A stretch of DNA of 64,000 nucleotides, taken from assembly GCA_016209735.1 (NCBI GenBank), contig JACQVN010000034.1, positions 9,557-73,556 of the forward strand, in the 5' to 3' direction. The DNA is from Candidatus Methylomirabilota bacterium (GTDB lineage: Bacteria > Methylomirabilota > Methylomirabilia > Methylomirabilales > 2-02-FULL-66-22). The position numbers and the translations under genes were made by a program. Below the pieces are notes generated by a model. That model had not been told where the DNA came from, searched no databases, and worked only from the letters and a program-made list of their open reading frames with translations. Shown here one piece after another: positions 14,478 to 57,799 of the stretch (position 1 is its first letter; each line of letters starts with the position of its first letter).

Positions 14478-14909
14478 ATGAGCGGGCAGGCCGTTGCTGG
14501 ATTCGAACTCTTCGCCGTCACCGCCGACCAGGGGATCCGGGCCTGGGGCCAGACCCTCCCCGAGCTGTTTCGGCAGGCTGCGCGCGGCCTCTTCAGCCTG
14601 ATCGTGGAGGCGGGGACGGTCGAAAACCGGGAGTGGGTGCCGGTTTCGGCGACGGCGGGGGATCGGGAGACCCTCCTGGTGGCGTGGCTCAACGAACTCC
14701 TCTACCTCTACGAGACCAGGGCCTTGGTGATGGGGGAGTGGCGAATCCGCCGCCTCGAGGATACCGCCCTGGAGGCCGAGGCGGGAGGCGAGGCGGTGGA
14801 TGCCGCGCGCCACGCCCTGCTCGGGCACGTGAAGGCGGTAACATATCATGGCCTGGCGCTCTACCCGACGGAGAGAGGCTGGGAGGCGCGGGTCGTCGTG
14901 GATGTGTAG
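14478..14909 (+). CDS. archease
   Basis: 143 aa. Archease pattern FELFAVTADQGIRAWG near the N-terminus and HVKAVTYHGL near the C-terminus. Confidence 0.8.
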   Translation: MSGQAVAGFELFAVTADQGIRAWGQTLPELFRQAARGLFSLIVEAGTVENREWVPVSATAGDRETLLVAWLNELLYLYETRALVMGEWRIRRLEDTALEAEAGGEAVDAARHALLGHVKAVTYHGLALYPTERGWEARVVVDV

Positions 14910-14979
14910 ACGAGAGCGGAGAGTCGAGAGCCGAGACCCGAGACCCTCGAAGGGGCCTGACTCCAGAGGAGAAAGGGCG

Positions 14980-15198
14980 ATGATGGAGAAGGTGCGGATC
15001 TTCGGGAAGGATGGCTGACCCTATACTGCTGCCGCCCGGGAGGAGTACGGCAGGCGAAAGGTGAGCGTGACATATGTGGACGTCACCCAAGACGCCGCGG
15101 GCCTGAAGCAGATGCTCCAGCACTCCAAGGGAGAGCGGACCGTCCCCGTGATCGTCGAGGGGGGGAAGGTCACCATCGGGTACAACGGCGGAGGGTGA
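14980..15198 (+). CDS. glutaredoxin-like (NrdH/YruB-type) protein with in-frame TGA at 15016-15018: candidate selenoprotein (U-P-Y-T active site)
   Basis: Not in the ORF track. GAGGAG at 14966-14971, ATG at 14980. Translation: MMEKVRIFGKDG-[TGA]-PYTAAAREEYGRRKVSVTYVDVTQDAAGLKQMLQHSKGERTVPVIVEGGKVTIGYNGGG, stop at 15196-15198. The TGA sits where the first Cys of the CPYC-type motif belongs. Confidence 0.6.
15027..15056 (+). promoter_or_regulatory. candidate bacterial SECIS hairpin
   Basis: Stem CTGCCG (15029-15034) / CGGCAG (15048-15053) with a 13-nt G-rich loop CCCGGGAGGAGTA. The loop starts 17 nt after the TGA. The stem is short and nothing was folded computationally. Confidence 0.35.
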
Positions 15199-15237
15199 GA
15201 AGTCTAGCCCGGTCCGCCGGAGGCGGATACGAAATGA

Positions 15238-15300
15238 CAATGACCAATGACCAATGGCCAATGACCAAAAATCAATGACCAATGATCAATGACCAATTAC
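15238..15300. repeat. tandem heptamer array, 9 units of CAATGAC (variants CAATGGC, CAAAAAT, CAATGAT, CAATTAC)
   Basis: Read directly: CAATGAC CAATGAC CAATGGC CAATGAC CAAAAAT CAATGAC CAATGAT CAATGAC CAATTAC. It is a circular permutation of TGACCAA, the complement of TTGGTCA. Confidence 0.9.
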
Positions 15301-15343
15301 GGATGAGCAAATACCATTGCCCTTGTGACTGAGAGGGGGAAGC

Positions 15344-15742
15344 GTGGGAGACGGGGAATCTGAACCTGAGATCCGGGAATGGCTGGAAGAGCTCCGGGGG
15401 ATCGACCTGGCGGACAGCGAGGTCGAAGCCGCCGCGGACCGCCTTCTTGCCATCGGCACCGCCGCCTTGCCCGTCCTCCTGGACATGTACAGCCAGCAGG
15501 ACGAGACATTGCTGGCCCTGGCCACCCAAGCGCTCAAGCGCTGGCCCGCGCCCCATCCCATCGAGCCATTGATCGCGCTGCTTCGCGACCCGACAGTCGA
15601 CGATATGGCCAAGGCCTTGATCCTCATCCTGCTGGAAGGATACGGCCTGGATCCGACCTCCCCCGAGGTGTTCGGCCTGTCCATCAACCTGGAGGATTAT
15701 CCGCTCCGCCGGCCGCCCGTCATGGGCGGCCCCTGGTCATGA
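15344..15742 (+). CDS. hypothetical protein, helical (HEAT-like) repeats
   Basis: 132 aa with a GTG start behind GAGAGGGGGAAG. Its stop overlaps the gpsA start (ATGA). I recognise no diagnostic motif. Confidence 0.5.
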   Translation: MGDGESEPEIREWLEELRGIDLADSEVEAAADRLLAIGTAALPVLLDMYSQQDETLLALATQALKRWPAPHPIEPLIALLRDPTVDDMAKALILILLEGYGLDPTSPEVFGLSINLEDYPLRRPPVMGGPWS

Positions 15743-19923: not shown

Positions 19924-21291
19924 ATGGCGGAGCGCTACCGCGTTGTCATTGTGGGGGCCGGTCCGGCCGGGATCTTCGCGGCACTGGAGCTGAAGCGGGC
20001 GGGTGTGCCGGGGGTGGTCATTGTCGAAAAGGGTCCCGACCTTCCGGACGGCCGGCGGCTGGGCCGCGGCCATTCTATGCTGAGCGGCTGGGGCGGCGCC
20101 GGGGCCTACAGCGACGGCAAACTTGCCCTTTCCACGGAGATCGGCGGTAGCCTGGCCCGATACTGTCCCCCAGGCCAACTGGCGGACCTCGTAGAGTACG
20201 TGGACAAGGTGTACCAGGCCTTCGGCGCTCCGGAGACCGTGCACGGGTCGAACCCCGAAGCGATGGCCCACCTGCAGCGCGAAGCGGCCCGCCTGGATAT
20301 GAAGGTCATTCCCAGCCGCTACCGCCACCTGGGGACCGACGGCTGCGAAGAGGTGGTGGGGCGATTGCGGGATGCGCTCGAGGGGGAGACGCGCATCCGC
20401 TGTCGGAGTCCGGTGAGCGCGGTCCTGCAACGGGATGGCCAAGCGGCCGGCGTCCGACTCGAAGACGGTACGGAAATCGCGGCGGAGTGGGTGATCCTGG
20501 CACCCGGCCGCGAAGGATCGGCCTGGCTGGCGCGGGAAGCCGCCCGCCTGGGGCTCCACAGCAGCATCAATCCGGTGGACATCGGGGTTCGCGTGGAGGT
20601 GCCCGCTTCGGTGATGGAGCCCATCACCAGCGTCACCTATGAGGCCAAGATCATCTACTACACCCGGCGCTTCGAGGACATGGTCCGCACCTTCTGCATG
20701 TGCCCGTACGGAGAGGTCATCCGGGAGGATCTGGGGGGTCTGTACACGGTCAACGGCCACAGCTTCGCCCATCGCCAGACGGCCAACACGAATTTCGCGC
20801 TGCTGGTCAGCTAGACCTTCACCGAGCCGTTCCGGGAGCCGATTGCCTATGGCCAGTCCATCGCGCGACTCGCCAACATGCTGGGAGGCGAGGTCCTCGT
20901 GCAGCGGGTGGGAGACCTGCGGCACGGGCGGCGGTCGACCCCGGGGCGCCTGGCCCGTGGCCTCCTCGAGCCGACTCTGAAGACCGCCACGCCGGGGGAT
21001 CTGAGCCTGGTGCTTCCCTACCGCCACCTGGCGGACATCCTGGAGATGCTGGAGACACTGGACCGGCTGGCACCCGGGGTGAACTCGGCGCACACCTTGC
21101 TTTATGGAGCGGAAGTGAAGTTCTACTCGCTCCAGTTGCGACTGAGCGCGGCCCTGGAGACGGAAATCCCGCATCTCTTCGCGGTGGGGGACGGGGCGGG
21201 GGTGAGTCGAGGACTGGTGCAGGCCTCGGTATCGGGCGTCATCGCTGCGCGAGAGATCGCCGGGCGGCTAGAAGCGGGGGAGGGTGGATAG
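19924..21291 (+). pseudogene. FAD-dependent oxidoreductase (COG2509-like) interrupted by one in-frame TAG at 20812-20814
   Basis: Track ORFs 19924-20814 and 20878-21291 are in the same frame. Reading through gives ...NFALLVS-[TAG]-TFTEPFREPIAYGQSIARLANMLGGEV.... The N-terminus has the dinucleotide fold VVIVGAGPAGIFAA, and the C-terminus has FAVGDGAGVSRG. Confidence 0.7.
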
Positions 21292-28954: not shown

Positions 28955-29136
28955 TAGCAGGAACCCTTGTGGTCACGCCGCAGGTGGAATTGACCAGCGA
29001 TCAGGGTAGCGGCGGGGTTTACCCCCGCCCGCGAGGCGATGAATCGGCAGTGCGCATGGCGCATGGCGCATGGCGCGGATTACCCCCGCGCGCAAGGCGG
29101 TGACCTGCAACTCGGCGGGAGGGGATAGACCCCTCC

Positions 29137-39974: not shown

Positions 39975-40028
39975 GGGTCCTCCTTGCTTGGGTCGCCGAA
40001 CAGGTTCCTGAAGCTTAGAGATGTCCGT

Positions 40029-40092
40029 GCTTCGACAAGCTCATGCTTCGACAAGCTCATGCTTCGACAAGCTCATGCTTCGACAAGCTCAG
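40029..40092. repeat. 4 tandem copies of the 16-mer GCTTCGACAAGCTCAT
   Basis: Read directly. It lies between purD and purE. Confidence 0.9.
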
Positions 40093-40140
40093 CATGAGCG
40101 GAAATACCTCCGAGATTTCATGCGACCCTTCGCTCACCCT

Positions 40141-40172
40141 GAGCCCGTCGAAGGGTGAGCCCGTCGAAGGGT
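40141..40172. repeat. 2 tandem copies of the 16-mer GAGCCCGTCGAAGGGT (approximate inverse of the 40029 unit)
   Basis: TGAGCCCGTCGAAG is close to the reverse complement of CTTCGACAAGCTCA. Together with 40029-40092 it forms a potential long imperfect cruciform. Confidence 0.85.
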
Positions 40173-40197
40173 GAACGGAGGGTTCTTCAGCACCCCG

Positions 40198-44884: not shown

Positions 44885-45019
44885 GTGACAGATTCGGTAA
44901 CGAATGCCAAGACACGGAAGCTCCCCGAGAGGGCAGAGGGGGGCGGATGCATGATCTGACGGTCCGGAGAGGGCGCCCCAAGGCAGCTTCAGCGGGGCCA
45001 CTCCCCGTGGAGGAACGGC

Positions 45020-45877
45020 ATGAGCTCGAGCGGCGGCGGTCAGGGGACACGGGGGACGGCTCCGACGTTTTCCGAGGAGCAAATCCGACGCTACAGCCGG
45101 CATATTCTCCTGCCCGAGGTGGGCGGCCGGGGGCAGCGGAAGCTTCTCAACAGCCGAGTCCTGTTGATCGGGGCAGGGGGGCTGGGCTCGCCGGCGGCGC
45201 TGTACCTGGCGGCGGCGGGGGTGGGAACCCTGGGGGTCGTCGATTTTGACGCGGTGGATCTCAGCAATCTCCAGCGGCAGATCTTACACCACGTCCGGGA
45301 CGTGGGCCGCCCGAAGGTGGAATCGGCGGTCGACACCATCCGGGAAATCAATCCGGACGTGAAGGTGATCCCCCACAAGCTCGCGCTCTCGTCCGAGAAC
45401 GTGCGCGAAGTCTTCGCGCCCTACGATGTCATCGTCAACGGCTCCGACAATTTCCCCACTCGCTACCTGGCCAATGATGCCTGCGTCTTCATGCGAAAGC
45501 CCCTGGTGGACGGCAGCATCTTCAAGTTCGAAGGACAGGCCACGGTCTATCTCCCGGGGAAGGGGTGCTATCGCTGCCTCTACCCAAAGCCGCCGCCGCC
45601 CGGGCTGGTGCCCAGTTGTGCGGAGGCCGGGGTCTTGGGGGTGCTGTGCGGCGTGGTGGCCTCGATCCAGGGTATCGAGACGATCAAACTGCTCCTGGGG
45701 CTCGGCGATTCCCTGGCGGGGCGCCTGCTCTTTTTCGACGCCCTGGGCATGGAGTTTCGCCAGGTGAAGATTCGCCGCGATCCGACCTGCCCGGTGTGCG
45801 GCGACAGCCCGACGATTACCGACCTCATCGATTACCACGAATTCTGCGGCGTGCCGAAGGAGGTGCGCCTGAGCTAG
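45020..45877 (+). CDS. ThiF/MoeB/HesA-family sulfur-carrier-protein adenylyltransferase (no rhodanese domain)
   Basis: 285 aa. RYSRHILLPEVGGRGQRKL, LLIGAGGLGSP, and Zn-site Cys pairs CYRC and CPVC. Confidence 0.9.
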   Translation: MSSSGGGQGTRGTAPTFSEEQIRRYSRHILLPEVGGRGQRKLLNSRVLLIGAGGLGSPAALYLAAAGVGTLGVVDFDAVDLSNLQRQILHHVRDVGRPKVESAVDTIREINPDVKVIPHKLALSSENVREVFAPYDVIVNGSDNFPTRYLANDACVFMRKPLVDGSIFKFEGQATVYLPGKGCYRCLYPKPPPPGLVPSCAEAGVLGVLCGVVASIQGIETIKLLLGLGDSLAGRLLFFDALGMEFRQVKIRRDPTCPVCGDSPTITDLIDYHEFCGVPKEVRLS

Positions 45878-46114
45878 CCCGCATTATTCGCGAACACGCC
45901 TCGCGAATACTGCGGGCTTAACAAAACACCAAGTGGGATGCGACCAAGGCCCGAAGCGGTGTCGTTATTGCCTATCGGCAGCTCACCCATCTCAGCGGAC
46001 GAATAACTTGGTGTGCCCAGCGGCATTGGGCATCCCGCCGCAGGCGGGAATGATTCTAGATCATTAAGCCCGGACTGTTCCCGAATCACGAAGGATTCGG
46101 GAATAGTCCGGGCT
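45876..46114 (+). repeat. type-B hairpin-bounded repeat element, copy 2 (fills the intercistronic gap between the adenylyltransferase and JAMM genes)
   Basis: Terminal hairpins lie at 45876-45918 and 46067-46114. The first hairpin overlaps the TAG stop codon (45875-45877). Internal helix ACACCAAGT/ACTTGGTGT. Confidence 0.85.
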
Positions 46115-46144
46115 GCGCGGGGCGAAGCCGTGACGGGAGCGAGA

Positions 46145-46639
46145 GTGAAAGGGCTTTCCCCGGATCATCTCGGTCGGATTGTTCGGGAGGCGGAGGCTGG
46201 CTACCCGGAGGAAGTGTGTGGCGCGGTCATCGGTCGACGCGGGGAATCCGATACCTACGAGATCCGGGCGCTGCCGAACATCGCCAACCGTGCCGGACCG
46301 CGAGGCCCCGACGGGAGCGTGCGGGACGCCCGGACTGCCTTTCTCGTGGACCCGGTTGCCGAGTGTCGGCTCCTGAGGGAGATCGAGGAGTCCGGCCGGG
46401 AGATCGTCATCTTCTATCATTCCCATCCTGACGCGGACGCCTATTTTTCCGCCATGGACCGGGAGCTGGCGCTCGCAGGCGGTCGCGAGCCCTGGTGGCC
46501 GGGGGTCGAATACCTGGTTGTCTCGGTTCGTCAGGGGCGGGCCGTGGCGGCCGCCCTGTTCGCCTGGGATCCGCTCCGCCGCGAGTTTGCCGATCACCCT
46601 GTTCCGGTCCCTGTGCCAGAGGGTATCGGGCCGGGCTAG
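46145..46639 (+). CDS. JAMM/MPN+ (Mov34) metalloprotease, Mec+/CysO-peptidase-like
   Basis: GTG 46145 inside track ORF 46013-46639. EEVCG and the JAMM motif HSHPDADAYFSAMD. Confidence 0.88.
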   Translation: MKGLSPDHLGRIVREAEAGYPEEVCGAVIGRRGESDTYEIRALPNIANRAGPRGPDGSVRDARTAFLVDPVAECRLLREIEESGREIVIFYHSHPDADAYFSAMDRELALAGGREPWWPGVEYLVVSVRQGRAVAAALFAWDPLRREFADHPVPVPVPEGIGPG

Positions 46640-46711
46640 GCGGCTGGATCCTCGCGGCAGAGTTGGGCTATCCTGTTTGGGTCGCGTCGTTGGAGACGCG
46701 ATCCGGGGGGG

Positions 46712-47215
46712 GTGGTGAAGACCCAAGAGGCTCTGAGTCTGATGATTGCCCTGGAAGAGCGGGTGGCCCGCGTGTACACTCACTTCTTCCGGACGTTTCG
46801 CGACGACCCGGCAGTGGCCCGCTGCTGGTGGGAAATGGCCCTCGATGAGCACGGTCACGCGGGCATCCTCACGATGGTTCGCGAGCTGGTTTCGTCCCAG
46901 GCGGAAGCCGGGGAGGTTGGCTCGCGGCTGTGGACGCTGGTCGAGGCGGTGGAGCACTGCGAGGCGGAGGCGCGCGAGGTAACCGCGCTGGACCGCGCGG
47001 TGGAGCTGGCCATCCGGCTGGAGTCCTCGGAGCTGGATGCCCTGGCCCATCGCATCATCGAATCCGTGCGGGCGCAACTCCCGGAAGGGGCGGGGCGAGC
47101 GTTTCTGGCCACCGAGGGCCATTGCCGCCCGCTGGCCGAGGCGGCCGCGCACATCCACGACCGAGCCGTGCGCCACCGCCTGGAGGTATTCCTGGCAGGC
47201 GCGAAGGCTCGCTGA
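46712..47215 (+). CDS. ferritin-like / rubrerythrin-like four-helix hypothetical protein
   Basis: 167 aa with a GTG start. Helical, with an E...EHGH-type segment (EMALDEHGHAGIL). Family not firmly recognised. Confidence 0.5.
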   Translation: MVKTQEALSLMIALEERVARVYTHFFRTFRDDPAVARCWWEMALDEHGHAGILTMVRELVSSQAEAGEVGSRLWTLVEAVEHCEAEAREVTALDRAVELAIRLESSELDALAHRIIESVRAQLPEGAGRAFLATEGHCRPLAEAAAHIHDRAVRHRLEVFLAGAKAR

Positions 47216-47342
47216 TCGCGGCGGCGAAGCAAGTTCCATGACCGCGTGCCAATGGCGCCTGACCAATCTCTACGGAAGTTCTGAAAGGATCGGGATTGGT
47301 CATTGGCAAATTGGTCATTGGGAATTTCGGAATGGAGGCGCC

Positions 47343-47585
47343 ATGAGTAGACGACGCGTGCACCTCACGTTCCAGGGGCAGCTCGCCGACGAGCCGGCCC
47401 TCTGGAATATGAGTCAGGAGTTCGGGCTGGTGTTCAACATCCGCCAGGCCGACCTGGAAGGCGGCTTCGGCTGGGTCATGCTGGAGCTGGAGGGCGGAGA
47501 CGACCAGTTGGAAGCGGCCGTCCGGTGGCTCGAGGGGCGGGGCGTGATCGTGGCGCCCATCGAGCAAGACATCGTAGCGGGATGA
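47343..47585 (+). CDS. NIL-domain protein (80 aa), paralogue 1
   Basis: ATG 47343 behind GGAGG. MSRRRVHLTFQGQLADEPALWNMSQEFGLVFNIRQADLE...LELEGGDDQLEAAVRWLEGRGV is NIL-domain-like (the MetN C-terminal domain type). Confidence 0.75.
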   Translation: MSRRRVHLTFQGQLADEPALWNMSQEFGLVFNIRQADLEGGFGWVMLELEGGDDQLEAAVRWLEGRGVIVAPIEQDIVAG

Positions 47586-47621
47586 CCGCGACATGCCGAA
47601 CGACGCTGCGGAGGTTTTCTC

Positions 47622-47650
47622 TTGACACACCCCACGGATCCTGCTTAAAT
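47622..47650 (+). promoter_or_regulatory. near-consensus sigma-70-type promoter TTGACA-17 nt-TTAAAT
   Basis: TTGACA at 47622-47627 and TTAAAT at 47645-47650, about 17 nt upstream of the riboswitch P1 stem. Confidence 0.6.
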
Positions 47651-47666
47651 CCGCCCACTTCGCTGA

Positions 47667-47764
47667 CTCATCCAGAGTGGCTGAGGGACTGGCCCGACGA
47701 AGCCACGGCAACCCCGCGCCGGCGGGGTGCCAACTCCTGCCCCGCCTGAGCGGGGAGAGATGAG
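47667..47764 (+). promoter_or_regulatory. SAM-I (S-box) riboswitch aptamer
   Basis: CTCATCCAGAGTGGCTGAGGGACTGGCCCGACGAAGCCACGGCAACCCCGCGCCGGCGGGGTGCCAACTCCTGCCCCGCCTGAGCGGGGAGAGATGAG matches the S-box consensus blocks (YTCATC.AGAG.GGC.GAGGGA.TGGCCC..TGA.GCC.GGCAACC...GGTGC.AA.TCC.GC...AGAGATGAG) with P1 closure CTCATC/GATGAG. Confidence 0.9.
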
Positions 47765-47791
47765 AGGGCGGCGATGGACGCTGTCCGGATG

Positions 47792-47830
47792 CCCCTTCTC
47801 ATGAAACGGTGAGAAGGGGTCTCGCGTTTT
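47792..47830 (+). terminator. riboswitch expression-platform hairpin (terminator; alternative antiterminator with 47761-47770)
   Basis: CCCCTTCTCA (47792-47801) / TGAGAAGGGG (47810-47819), then TCTCGCGTTTT. The 3' P1 strand plus GAGAGGGCGG can alternatively pair with CCCCTTCTCA. The U-tract is short and offset. Confidence 0.5.
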
Positions 47831-47841
47831 CCGGGAGGGTC

Positions 47842-48075
47842 ATGGTGGCGACGTTGCGGGTGCGCTTGCTGTTCCCGGCAGAGCTGGTGCGGGAGCCGAT
47901 CATCTATTCCGTCGCCACGAGACACCACCTGATTCCCAACCTCCGCAAGGCACGAGTCACGGAGCGATCCGGCGAGGCGATCCTCGACCTCAGCGGGGAT
48001 GAAGAGTCTCTCAGACAGGGGATCGAGTACTTGACGGGCCTGGGGGTGAAAGTCAAACCGCTGCCGATCGAGTGA
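47842..48075 (+). CDS. NIL-domain protein (77 aa), paralogue 2
   Basis: ATG 47842 behind GGGAGGG. MVATLRVRLLFPAELVREPIIYSVATRHHLIPNLRKARVTERSGEAILDLSGDEESLRQGIEYLTGLGV. Confidence 0.75.
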   Translation: MVATLRVRLLFPAELVREPIIYSVATRHHLIPNLRKARVTERSGEAILDLSGDEESLRQGIEYLTGLGVKVKPLPIE

Positions 48076-48091
48076 GGGGGAACGCGAGTCG

Positions 48092-49363
48092 ATGAGCGAC
48101 ATCAAGGGGTTGAAGTGTCGAGAATGCGCCCGGGCCTATCCCATCCGTCCCGTGCATGTCTGCGAGTTCTGCTTTGGGCCCTTGGAGGTCGACTACGACT
48201 ACGCCGCCATCGGGGCCAGGGTGACTCGGCAGAGCATCGAGGCTGGGCCGGCCACCATGTGGCGCTATCGGGCGTTGCTGCCCGTAGACGGCGAGATCGT
48301 GGTGGGGCGCTATTGCGGCCTCACCCCCCTGGTGGAGGCGCGCAATTTGGGCAAGGCCCTCGGCCTCCGCCGCCTCTACCTCAAGAACGACACCGTCAAC
48401 CACCCGACGCTCTCCTTCAAGGACCGGGTGGTGGCCGTGGCGGTGAACAAGGCCCTGGAATTCGGTTTCCCGGTTGTCGCCTGCGCCTCCACCGGCAACC
48501 TGGCCAACTCGGTGGCCGCCCACGCCGCGGAAGGAGGGCTGACGAGCTTCATCTTCATTCCCGCGGACCTGGAGCGGGGGAAGGTGCTGGGGACTTCGAT
48601 CTACGCGGCGAATGTGGTGGCGGTCCGCGGGACCTACGACGAGGTCAACCGCCTGTGCAGCGAGATTGCCGACAAGCACGGGTGGGGCTTCGCCAACATC
48701 AATCTGCGACCGTTCTACGCCGAGGGGTCCAAAACCTTCGGCTACGAGATCGCCGAACAGTTGGGGTGGCGTGCTCCGGATCACGTGGTGGTGCCGGCGG
48801 CGGGGGGGTCCTTGATCACCAAGATCTGGAAGGGCCTGCGCGAGTTTCACGGCCTGCGCCTGATTCCGGGCGTGCCGACGCGGATGCACGTGGCACAGGC
48901 GGCGGGCTGCGCCCCCATCGTGACCGCGGTCAGGGCGAATACCGACCTCATTCGGCCGGTCAAGCAGCCCACGGGGATTGCCAAGTCGCTGGCCATCGGC
49001 AACCCGGCCGACGGGTACTACGCCTTCAAGACGGTCAAGCAGAGCGGGGGGATGGGGGAAGAGGCGACCGACGAGGAGATTGTGGATGCCATGAAGCTCT
49101 TGGCAGCGACCGAGGGAATATTCGCCGAGACGGCCGGCGGGGTCACGCTGGCGGCGACCCGGAAGCTGGTCCAGCAGGGCGCGATCGGGCGGGACGAGGT
49201 GACGGTCGCCTGCATCACCGGGAACGGCCTCAAGACTCAGGAGGCGGTGGCGGCGGCCCTGCGACCCCCGATCCACATCCAGCCGACGCTGCGATCGTTC
49301 GATGAGATCTTGACCCAATCCAACGGCGCCGGCCCGAGCCTGGTGGACGGCAAGGCGGCGTAG
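48092..49363 (+). CDS. threonine-synthase-family PLP enzyme with N-terminal zinc ribbon (candidate homocysteine-forming, MetM-like)
   Basis: 423 aa. CRECARAY...CEFCFG ribbon, PLP-lysine motif HPTLSFKDR, and a ThrC-like fold throughout. The functional guess rests on SAM-riboswitch control and the adjacent sulfur carrier. Confidence 0.85.
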   Translation: MSDIKGLKCRECARAYPIRPVHVCEFCFGPLEVDYDYAAIGARVTRQSIEAGPATMWRYRALLPVDGEIVVGRYCGLTPLVEARNLGKALGLRRLYLKNDTVNHPTLSFKDRVVAVAVNKALEFGFPVVACASTGNLANSVAAHAAEGGLTSFIFIPADLERGKVLGTSIYAANVVAVRGTYDEVNRLCSEIADKHGWGFANINLRPFYAEGSKTFGYEIAEQLGWRAPDHVVVPAAGGSLITKIWKGLREFHGLRLIPGVPTRMHVAQAAGCAPIVTAVRANTDLIRPVKQPTGIAKSLAIGNPADGYYAFKTVKQSGGMGEEATDEEIVDAMKLLAATEGIFAETAGGVTLAATRKLVQQGAIGRDEVTVACITGNGLKTQEAVAAALRPPIHIQPTLRSFDEILTQSNGAGPSLVDGKAA

Positions 49364-49446
49364 CGTGCAATCGATGCGGGTGCGCCTCCGCCCCTGGCGG
49401 GCGGCGGCCAGTGCCCACCTGACCACGACGAAGGAGGGGAGATCGC

Positions 49447-49989
49447 ATGGCAGTTACCGTTCGAATTCCGACTCCGCTACGGGCATTGACGGGCGGGAAG
49501 GGGGACCTCCGGATCGAGGCCGCGAACGTTCGGGATCTCGTGGATGGGCTGGAGAAGGAGCACACGGGCCTGAAGGAGCGGCTCTGCGAGAGCGACGGTT
49601 CGTTCCGGCGGTTCATCAACATCTATCTGAACGATGAGGACATCCGCTTTCTTCAGGGGGCGGACACCGGTCTCAAGGACGGGGACGAAGTGTCCATCGT
49701 CCCGGCCATCGCCGGCGGCCGCCAGCTTCGCCGCCCCGCGCGCAGGGACGGGAGGACGGGACAGGACTTACAGGATGATCAGGATCGGTCGCCCCGGTCA
49801 AACCCCTCTTTCCTCTCCGGTCTGCCCAGGGAAAGGCGCGTTCTTGGTACGGAGAGCCTCCCACGAAGGGACAATTCTCGGCAGCACGAATGTCTTCGAG
49901 CCCTGGGACACGCAGCGAAAGCTCGTCCAGGAAGATGGCCTCCAGTTCCCGCACCAGACCCGTATCCTCGCCGAGGCCGAAAAGATTGA
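49447..49989 (+). CDS. CysO/MoaD/ThiS-family sulfur carrier protein; the ubiquitin-like domain ends ...VPAIAGG at 49719 but the frame stays open for 89 further low-complexity codons
   Basis: Residues 1-91 (MAVTVRIPTPLRALTGGKGDL...FINIYLNDEDIRF...GDEVSIVPAIAGG) closely resemble mycobacterial CysO. No stop codon follows Gly-Gly (GGC GGC CGC CAG...). The first in-frame stop is at 49987-49989. Confidence 0.8.
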   Translation: MAVTVRIPTPLRALTGGKGDLRIEAANVRDLVDGLEKEHTGLKERLCESDGSFRRFINIYLNDEDIRFLQGADTGLKDGDEVSIVPAIAGGRQLRRPARRDGRTGQDLQDDQDRSPRSNPSFLSGLPRERRVLGTESLPRRDNSRQHECLRALGHAAKARPGRWPPVPAPDPYPRRGRKD

Positions 49990-50535
49990 CCAGCACGTGA
50001 TCGGGAAGGCGCAGGCCGTCCCGGCCGGCCGCCTCCTGCCGCTGCCATTCCATTTCCCCCGGCAGGAAGATGCGATCGGCGCTCTTGGAGCGGGGGGCGC
50101 TCTTGATCTCGCGGATCATGCCGTCCATGCGCTCCCTGAGGTCTGCACGGGCATCATGGCGGGAACGTCGATGGCGACGAAGGCGATGGGGTTCGTCCCC
50201 AGGATAGGGCCGCACCCTCCGGGGAGCGTCATCCAGGGATCGGTGTTGGTCATGGCCATCCCGATCATGTCCTCCTTGAGAGCCATGACCGCGTAGTAGC
50301 CGGCGGCGCCGAAGTGGTTGCTCCCGCGCACGCCGCCATAGGCAATGCCCGCGGCCTTGGCTTTCCGCATGGCGAGTGCCATGGCGCGGAAGGCAATGAC
50401 CGTCGGCATGCCCCGGCGACCGTCCACGACGGCCCAGGCGGGGCCTTCGCCGACCGTCTGGGGAAGGGCCCGGGGGTCGATCCGGCCGTCCCGGCGCTGC
50501 AATACAATCAGGCCCGGCAGGAAATGTCCAACGAA
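49930..50535 (-). pseudogene. decayed malate/L-lactate dehydrogenase-family (Ldh_2) gene: N-terminally truncated, internal deletion with frameshift
   Basis: One frame reads ...RIDPRALPQTVGEGPAWAVVDGRRGMP...AKAAGIAYGGVRGSNHFGAAGYY...ILGTNPIAFVAIDVPAMMPVQTS and stops at 50116. A different frame continues DLRERMDGMIREIKSAP...DRIFLPGEMEWQRQ..., the family's C-terminal part. About 100+ central residues and ~45 N-terminal residues are missing. The end coordinates are approximate. Confidence 0.65.
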
Positions 50536-50709
50536 TTATCGGGGACGGGCGGCATATAGCGTATGGCTTATGGCTAGGCCATGGTTCCGTCTCTGCCATA
50601 CGCCACGTGCCATCGGCCCTAAGCCCAATGCTGCTTACATAGACGTGGGACACGGGGGGGTCCGCCTCTCCGAAGGAGTCCGGAGTCCAGCGGACCGGCA
50701 GATGCGAAC

Positions 50710-57606: not shown

Positions 57607-57645
57607 GGGCGTCTCCAGAGGCGAAGCGTTCTTTCTGACCGGGGA

Positions 57646-57687
57646 CGGGAGACCGAGGACGGGAGACGGGAGACGGGAGACCGGAGA
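57646..57687. repeat. tandem heptamer array, 6 units of CGGGAGA (variants CCGAGGA, CCGGAGA)
   Basis: Read directly. It is followed by a partly complementary CGGTCCCCCGTCTTCCGTC (57702-57720). Confidence 0.85.
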
Positions 57688-57799
57688 CCGGCCCCCCGTC
57701 GTCGGTCCCCCGTCTTCCGTCAGCGACTCCGGGAGCTCGGGTCCTCTCCGCGGTCTCTGCGATCTCTGCGGTGAATCGTTTCGGCTAGGAAGATATTGT

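Follow-up and report, generated by a model that had tools for sequence, protein, structure and literature searches.

The locus described herein lies in a 64,000-nucleotide stretch of DNA from a Methylomirabilota bacterium (the whole of which we call the window), with a G+C content of 67% and a resemblance to groundwater genomes assembled for this phylum (NC10). Upstream are a MacB/FtsX-type permease and an archease, while downstream are a 132-residue open reading frame (ORF; 15344-15742, plus strand), gpsA, a ketopantoate reductase, and a TGS-domain GTPase. Between them, gene callers report only a 45-aa C-terminal fragment (P0001) of what appears to be a longer gene containing selenocysteine (Sec) (Table 1). 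From ATG 14980, the frame reads MMEKVRIFGKDG-TGA(15016-15018)-PYTAAAREEYGRRKVSVTYVDVTQDAAGLKQMLQHSKGERTVPVIVEGGKVTIGYNGGG-TGA(15196-15198), with 12 residues ahead of the first Sec codon, as in the orthologues (MAETVLIFGKDT-U), and, beyond the second TGA, it runs on as GGG-TGA-GAA-GTC-TAG to a stop at 15205-15207. A preliminary description of the locus had placed the GAGGAG, the ATG, the first TGA, and a pair of complementary arms (15029-15034 and 15048-15053), all of which are present in the sequence, and had closed the gene at 15196, after 72 residues. The second Sec was missed because the supposed stop codon is, in our reading, a Sec codon too. Given the course of the frame, the layout of the homologues, the match to the full family profile, and a published review entry, we assign the gene to 14980-15207, with 75 residues, Sec at positions 13 and 73 (U13 and U73), and a U-E-V end.

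Table 1. Coordinates of the UXX-star family 1 gene and its predicted recoding elements in the window.
Feature	Position	Strand	Basis or remark
Shine-Dalgarno-like GAGGAG	14966..14971	+	8 nt 5' of ATG 14980; read from sequence
Complete CDS, 75 residues: MMEKVRIFGKDG-U-PYT...GYNGGG-U-EV-stop	14980..15207	+	NF041114.2, PF00462, dN/dS
Predicted Sec codon 1 (U13), active-site motif U-P-Y-T	15016..15018	+	TGA conserved in homologues; four independent assemblies
Putative SECIS-1, in coding region	15026..15053	+	Fold; Sec-form-specific stem and codon tests
SECIS-1 lower stem	15026-31 (or 15029-34) with 15048-53	+	
SECIS-1 upper pairs	C15036-G15043, C15037-G15042	+	
SECIS-1 apical loop GGGA	15038-15041	+	19 nt past UGA
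Predicted Sec codon 2 (U73), stop codon of the preliminary description	15196..15198	+	TGA in 93/94 loci; then x-Val and a variable stop
True stop TAG ("star" of U-x-x-star)	15205..15207	+	Homologues vary in stop here
Putative SECIS-2, wholly in 3'UTR	15212..15228	+	Covariation
SECIS-2 7-bp stem	15212-18 with 15222-28	+	
SECIS-2 apical loop GGA	15219-21	+	20 nt past UGA-2

The sequence on which this model is built recurs elsewhere. Specifically, 14900-15320, both TGAs included, was matched without substitutions or gaps in Logan assemblies of four groundwater-metagenome runs (word depths of 44x, 32x, 4.6x, and 2.5x); these four independent assemblies show no variant at either codon. Across this GC-rich window, TGA is the commonest stop codon and ends many Pfam-complete genes, such as a thiolase whose Pfam match reaches the last residue before the TGA, and the genetic code is thus standard here. 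A screen of the window for further TGA read-through genes turned up nothing beyond ordinary junctions between genes.

With each U entered as C, the 75-residue product scores 111 bits against NCBIfam NF041114.2, the "UXX-star selenoprotein family 1" (cut-off, 72), with residues 5-75 aligned to positions 1-70 of the 70-position profile. The score without the U-E-V tail is 105.8 bits, such that it is the addition of C-E-V that raises it to 111 and completes the coverage of the profile. The parent subfamily, NF041212, is matched as well, as is Pfam Glutaredoxin (PF00462; 40.1 bits; cut-off, 22.9; E = 4e-10), and the nearest solved structures are all glutaredoxins. The glutaredoxin fold recognized in the preliminary description is thereby upheld. 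Its assignment to an NrdH/YruB type is not, since the product falls short of the cut-offs for both YruB (TIGR02196; 36.8 versus 88.55 bits) and NrdH (TIGR02194; 13.7 versus 85.75 bits), the right family being NF041114. It also stays below the cut-off for Grx3 (TIGR02181; 38.4 versus 90 bits) and far below that for mycoredoxin. A CxxC dithiol motif is absent, with Thr standing in for the second Cys, as had been described.

Taken at the level of sequence, the gene is a predicted small glutaredoxin-fold selenoprotein of UXX-star family 1, a family already curated. It is therefore not a new selenoprotein family, as NCBIfam and the literature already contain the family under this name, along with its two Sec residues: a 2026 review has an entry for UXX-star family 1 with two Sec per protein, and a 2022 review carries the same entry. 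The 2026 review credits Zhang & Gladyshev 2008 for the family and, for its sister families, Haft & Tolstoy 2025 (PMC12013261). With this family, the "Distant Grx-like protein 1" of Zhang & Gladyshev 2008, the window gene shares the UxxT motif (TGA 15016-15018, then P-Y-T), two Sec residues, a length of ~70-75 residues, and a C-terminal U-x-x-stop, in which exactly two residues separate Sec from the stop (TGA 15196-GAA-GTC-TAG 15205). There is no difference of substance, and the gene is another orthologue, with its nearest Methylomirabilota relatives 72-77% identical to it. Members of the family occur widely among bacteria from soil, sediment, and groundwater, and its sister families include fusions to other selenoprotein modules (HUGP/GUXX-star).

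To examine both TGA codons across the family, we drew on 94 sequences including the window, 80 of which were added by a metagenome scan; they comprise 86 unique CDS. The codon at the first site is TGA in 71 loci, TGC in 18, and TGT in 5, so that the column of TGA 15016 holds either Sec or, in 23 loci, Cys. The corresponding motif is UPYT in 62 loci, UPFT in 7, and CPYT in 22. As the preliminary description had proposed, the TGA opens the CxxC-type motif; it has the behavior of a conserved Sec codon, for which the homologues use Sec and Cys interchangeably. Given that representatives of the U- and C-type clades alike score 107-124 bits to NF041114, this interchange lies within the family. The second site is TGA in 93 of the 94 loci and TGC in one, an all-Cys homologue in which the frame reads on, and the combination of an N-terminal Sec with a C-terminal Cys occurs in none of the 94. 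Downstream of the second site, the layout is nearly uniform: the tails are UEV (43 loci), UGV (30), UAV (8), and a few others, the codon before the true stop is a Val codon (GTC or GTG), and a stop follows three codons after the site in 91 loci (91 of the 93 Sec-type loci), as TAG in 38, TGA in 34, and TAA in 19.

The Sec-type loci found in Genome Taxonomy Database (GTDB) genomes, which come from Methylomirabilota, Anaeromyxobacter, Planctomycetota, Nitrospirota/Thermodesulfovibrionia, and two unclassified metagenome-assembled genomes (MAGs), all repeat this order (12 of 12), with the "terminal" TGA leading through one variable codon and one for Val to the actual stop (TAG, TGA, or TAA). Both TGAs are thus kept across these named lineages and across many metagenome lineages. 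Further, the stretch between the two TGAs is under purifying selection, with an omega of ~0.11-0.18 (about 0.15; pS, ~0.45-0.6; pN, ~0.10-0.14) against 12 Methylomirabilota orthologues. Such selection past the first UGA argues against a genuine premature stop, which would leave the downstream sequence unselected.

Each UGA is followed by a hairpin that fits the published consensus for bacterial SECIS elements (bSECIS), namely, a stem of 4-16 bp with an apical loop of 3-9 nt that starts with G[G/U], 16-37 nt from the UGA. The downstream element, SECIS-2, combines a 7-bp stem with a GGA loop, 20 nt from its UGA, and would be untranslated, since a stop codon sits between UGA-2 and the hairpin. 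We scored a hairpin as canonical if it had a stem with 6 bp or more and no mismatch, a loop of 3-5 nt with G in its first two positions, and a start 8-14 nt past the UGA. Such hairpins follow UGA-2 in 71 of 83 unique loci, whereas dinucleotide shuffles yield 3.0 on average and 8 at most. Their loops (GGC, GGTC, GGA, and GGT) begin with GG/GU at a fixed 16-20 nt past the UGA, while their 5' arms come in 58 distinct versions. Among 45 non-identical triloop hairpins, compensatory changes were found at 8 of 8 pairs, 91.9% of the cells were paired (61.0% when shuffled), and the covariation score was 0.744, relative to 0.175 for shuffled sequences (none of 500 as high) and at most 0.135 with slid partners. 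The segments were anchored on the loop for this purpose, since the hairpin offset differs between clades in ungapped MAFFT alignments, and the register was chosen per sequence, for which the shuffle and slide controls were run. No T-run follows SECIS-2, and a terminator scan raised no flag. Rfam searches returned no SECIS-like match, either in the whole window at the gathering threshold or in 14900-15300 at E <= 10.

SECIS-1, which lies in the coding region, had been noted in the preliminary description as a hairpin of CTGCCG (15029-15034) and CGGCAG (15048-15053), with a 13-nt loop. The arms are able to pair (MFE, -21.2). Folded alone, however, the hairpin at 15029-15053 is unexceptional (z = -0.99; 31 of 200 shuffles as good), and the folding energy of positions +9 to +48 across the homologues does not separate Sec forms from shuffles or from Cys forms. 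Because the folding energy is not exceptional, the significance of this hairpin comes from comparative data. The stem around the conserved CCCGNGAGGA averages 4.69 bp in 64 Sec forms, whereas the average for 22 Cys forms is 3.36 bp (p = 2e-5). In chimeric controls, for which the 5' half of one sequence is joined to the 3' half of another, the average is 3.88 bp (maximum among 500, 4.34), and the Cys forms equal their own control. The stem is built from 28 different arm pairs, and the CGGGAG/CTCCCG stem of one Sec form, L034, is disrupted in two closely related Cys forms, L031 and L039.

Folding puts a GGGA/GUGA apical loop on the Arg-Glu codons. At the Arg codon (15037-15039), the third base (15039) is G or U in all 64 Sec forms (CGG in 32, CGU in 30, and AGG in 2) but in only 9 of 22 Cys forms (Fisher p = 6e-10), while, of the 258 other Arg codons of these genes, 89 are CGC. 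This preference follows the bSECIS consensus, whose G[G/U] loop rule here constrains a synonymous site. As the sequences are phylogenetically related, the p-values for both the stem and the codon are indicative only. On this basis, GGGA (15038-15041, with a composite stem and 19 nt from its UGA) is the likelier apical loop for SECIS-1 function, and it lies inside the 13-nt "loop" first described; that the hairpin region as such is a SECIS is supported. SECIS-2 is predicted to be much the stronger of the two elements. The preliminary description is therefore partly supported: its call of a candidate selenoprotein was right, its gene model was incomplete, and the second, stronger element in the 3'UTR escaped it.

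The joint explanation that we consider very probable is a two-Sec UXX-star family 1 protein, with each UGA served by its own SECIS and with a putative redox couple between U13 and U73. The in silico support extends to the gene model, the family membership, the conserved TGAs, both SECIS elements, and the purifying selection, from which Sec insertion itself is predicted. One competitor, raised in the preliminary description, is that a Cys-to-stop change killed an ordinary glutaredoxin gene. TGC becomes TGA in a single step, gene callers yield no more than a fragment here, and disrupted genes do occur in the window (a TAG at 20812-20814 in an FAD-oxidoreductase domain; an Ldh_2 gene split across frames). 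We nevertheless consider it refuted and give it almost no credence, since a dead codon would not recur as TGA in 71 of the 94 loci, which span several phyla, or be followed by sequence at a dN/dS of ~0.15. The SECIS-1 stem and Arg codon are, moreover, kept only in TGA forms, and the product passes the cut-off of a curated HMM for selenoproteins. It is likewise very improbable that UGA stands for one of the ordinary amino acids (Cys, Trp, or Gly), without selenium, through a reassigned code or SelB-dependent Cys insertion. The latter, with a non-canonical tRNA-Cys, has been reported, as the reference list of PMC13582414 indicates. Against it stand the many Pfam-complete window genes that TGA terminates, which leave no room for a global reassignment, the SECIS-type hairpins with a G[G/U] loop signature at both UGAs, and the record of the phylum as Sec-using: one MAG has 63 predicted selenoproteins (PMC13188914), and Sec-type hydrogenases occur in Methylomirabilota (PMC13582414). 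Within the 64-kb window itself, no selA, selB, selD, or tRNA-Sec was found by the Pfam annotation of ~50 ORFs and a tRNA search, which returned no tRNA gene.

The gene model of the preliminary description keeps Sec at 15016 and takes TGA 15196 as a genuine stop; the downstream hairpin would then be a terminator or an mRNA-stabilizing stem. It can draw on the frequency of TGA as a stop in this window and on GC-rich hairpins directly after a stop being typical of 3' ends. We regard it as highly unlikely, given that true stops elsewhere vary while this site is TGA in 93 of 94 loci, that exactly two sense codons and a variable stop follow it, that the all-Cys homologue carries TGC there and continues, that the NCBIfam profile includes the U-x-V positions, which raise the score of the product, that the hairpin keeps its loop signature at a fixed distance from the UGA and has none of the T-run of a terminator, and that the 2026 review counts two Sec for the family. 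The reading that concerns us most leaves the gene and both Sec residues in place and differs in function, with the selenols as ligands of soft metals or metalloids (Hg, As, Cu, or selenium itself) in a chaperone, carrier, or detoxification protein. The lack of a resolving Cys in the active-site motif and the fusion of sister families to other selenoprotein modules speak for it, and the 2026 review allows that the selenols may bind metals, metalloids, or other substrates. Yet the neighbors in every clade examined are housekeeping genes, with no mer, ars, or cop gene among them, and the fold and TVP cis-Pro loop are those of redox-active glutaredoxins; we therefore see it as doubtful, if still a serious candidate.

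The neighborhoods give little further guidance as to function. The gene order of the window is kept only within a Methylomirabilota-like clade; in other clades, the gene sits beside an APH-type kinase, NAD synthase, CN-hydrolase, peptide deformylase, or thioesterase, and no conserved operon partner that would hint at a substrate was found across the clades. The 132-residue ORF that lies between the gene and gpsA overlaps the gpsA start, is a separate gene in the Logan records, and has no Pfam match. In three Methylomirabilota loci (L003, L006, and L017), gpsA lies ~4.7 kb downstream, versus ~0.3-0.5 kb in the window and most relatives, which points to an insertion between the UXX-star gene and gpsA, at the site of a heptamer array.

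For the preferred two-Sec redox protein, we propose that each round of translation would involve two SelB/SECIS-dependent recoding events. UGA-1 (15016) would be served by a weak coding-sequence SECIS, whose G[G/U]GA loop derives from conserved Ala-Arg-Glu codons, and UGA-2 (15196), three codons from the end, by a GC-rich hairpin with a GG-initiated triloop past the true stop. In the product, U13 would stand in for the nucleophilic Cys of the CxxC motif, where helix 1 of the glutaredoxin fold begins. With the usual resolving Cys replaced by Thr, U73, on a flexible Gly-rich tail (GGG-U-E-V), would act as the resolving or partner residue. It is the only other redox-capable residue besides U13, and its GGG-containing tail replaces the C-terminal helix. 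The protein might then alternate between its diselenol form and an intramolecular diselenide (or a selenenylsulfide in homologues with an N-terminal Cys), in the role of a small thiol/selenol oxidoreductase. This diselenol/diselenide couple is the one we favor, and we infer it, along with the substrate and the reductant. Glutaredoxins with a second Cys in the C-terminal part offer a precedent, as they form an intramolecular disulfide with the active-site Cys that is reduced by GSH, thioredoxin, or thioredoxin reductase (PMC9854632). Proximity of U13 and U73 is only plausible, because two alignments place U73 differently: a pairwise alignment to 2klx (a Bartonella glutaredoxin) puts it on the Cys after the GG motif, while a family-profile alignment to Escherichia coli Grx3 puts it ~5 residues past the "GG-C" semi-conserved Cys position.

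These features set the protein apart from its better-known relatives. The Clostridium oremlandii selenoprotein Grx1 (UxxC; 7c10/7c12) and the classical CPYC glutaredoxins, E. coli Grx3 (3grx/1fov) among them, share its fold, N-terminal Sec/Cys, C-P-Y, and TVP cis-Pro loop, but their fourth motif residue is Cys, rather than the Thr seen here, and they have a C-terminal helix where the window protein has a Gly-rich tail with a second Sec; the scores far under the cut-offs of the Grx3, YruB, and NrdH families are a further difference. The glutaredoxins with a "semi-conserved" Cys (ScGrx5, EcGrx4, CrGRX3, and AtGRXS16) are alike in pairing, through an intramolecular bond, a single Cys-type active-site residue with a second redox residue toward the C-terminus, although the bond here is a prediction. 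They differ in being CGFS-type Fe-S proteins with Cys, whereas both residues here would be Sec (or Cys and Sec), and the partner residue here lies ~5 residues further on, on the terminal tail. Mammalian thioredoxin reductase, as expressed in E. coli with an engineered SECIS, offers the same arrangement of a Sec near the C-terminus (-Gly-Cys-Sec-Gly), a flexible tail, and a SECIS after the stop, and such an engineered bacterial 3'UTR SECIS works for a C-terminal Sec in E. coli (PMC10778597). The layout described herein is, however, natural and bacterial and belongs to a 75-residue glutaredoxin fold rather than a flavoenzyme.

A bolder version of this comparison, which we think rather improbable, is that the N-terminal Sec/Cys and the near-invariant C-terminal Sec form a diselenide or selenenylsulfide of unusually low potential and that the protein is a dedicated electron or selenium relay. 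If so, it might, for example, re-reduce other selenoproteins or supply the Sec pathway with selenium species, in a phylum (Methylomirabilota) very rich in selenoproteins, and it would be a bacterial, stand-alone analogue of the Sec tail of thioredoxin reductase, with its C-terminal Sec served by an unconstrained 3'UTR SECIS. Whichever function applies, a single mRNA with one SECIS in its coding region and another in its 3'UTR would be a compact natural system, with a possible diselenide in a glutaredoxin fold of 75 residues. For annotation, ordinary callers miss the gene altogether or cut it to a 45-residue fragment, and the C-terminus is still wrong if only the first TGA is recognized; the right model has two recoded UGAs and one SECIS past the stop codon.

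The window also holds several other features. Heptamer tandem arrays flank the gene, with CGAGAGC repeated 4.7 times at 14911-14943 and AATGACC repeated 9.4 times at 15233-15297, just past SECIS-2. CCAATGACC-type arrays also follow the orthologous gene in seven relatives (L001-L007), and further heptamer arrays lie at 47295-47319 (minus strand), 29052-29076, and 57637-57691. In metagenome assemblies, the k-mer depth of 15238-15268 is 2800-7000x, versus ~40x in the flanks, which indicates that the array is massively repeated. AATGACCAAT has 10 matches in the window, against 1.3 expected. Read on the opposite strand, the heptamer TGACCAA gives TTGGTCA, the STRR2 heptamer of cyanobacteria.

Two genes of the window appear disrupted. 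An FAD-dependent oxidoreductase (19924-21291, plus strand) is interrupted by an in-frame TAG (20812-20814): its first ORF alone covers positions 4-89 of the 197 in PF21688, while the frame joined across the TAG covers 4-195, and the 158 codons past the TAG keep a coding GC3 signature. The TAG is present in three assemblies, and a related contig of lower depth has ACC (Thr) instead; it could mark a strain-level pseudogene, a recent nonsense mutation, or a case of stop read-through. A malate/L-lactate dehydrogenase (Ldh_2; PF02615; 49673-50653, minus strand) is seemingly split between two frames, with profile positions 53-160 in the frame of 50116-50535 and 277-331 in that of 49673-50653, and is a frameshifted pseudogene or an assembly error.

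A SAM riboswitch (47665-47766, plus strand; 86.9 bits) is the only Rfam match of the window at the gathering threshold. Genes for a NIL-domain ORF, a PLP-dependent (PALP) enzyme, and a ThiS-like sulfur carrier follow it, an enzyme of the ThiF family lies close by, and the region as a whole (44960-49989) looks like a SAM-regulated, sulfur-carrier-dependent cluster for Met/Cys biosynthesis. Finally, perfect 16-nt tandem repeats lie in the intergenic DNA beside purD, with TGCTTCGACAAGCTCA repeated 4 times (40028-40091) and TGAGCCCGTCGAAGGG repeated 2.2 times (40140-40174).
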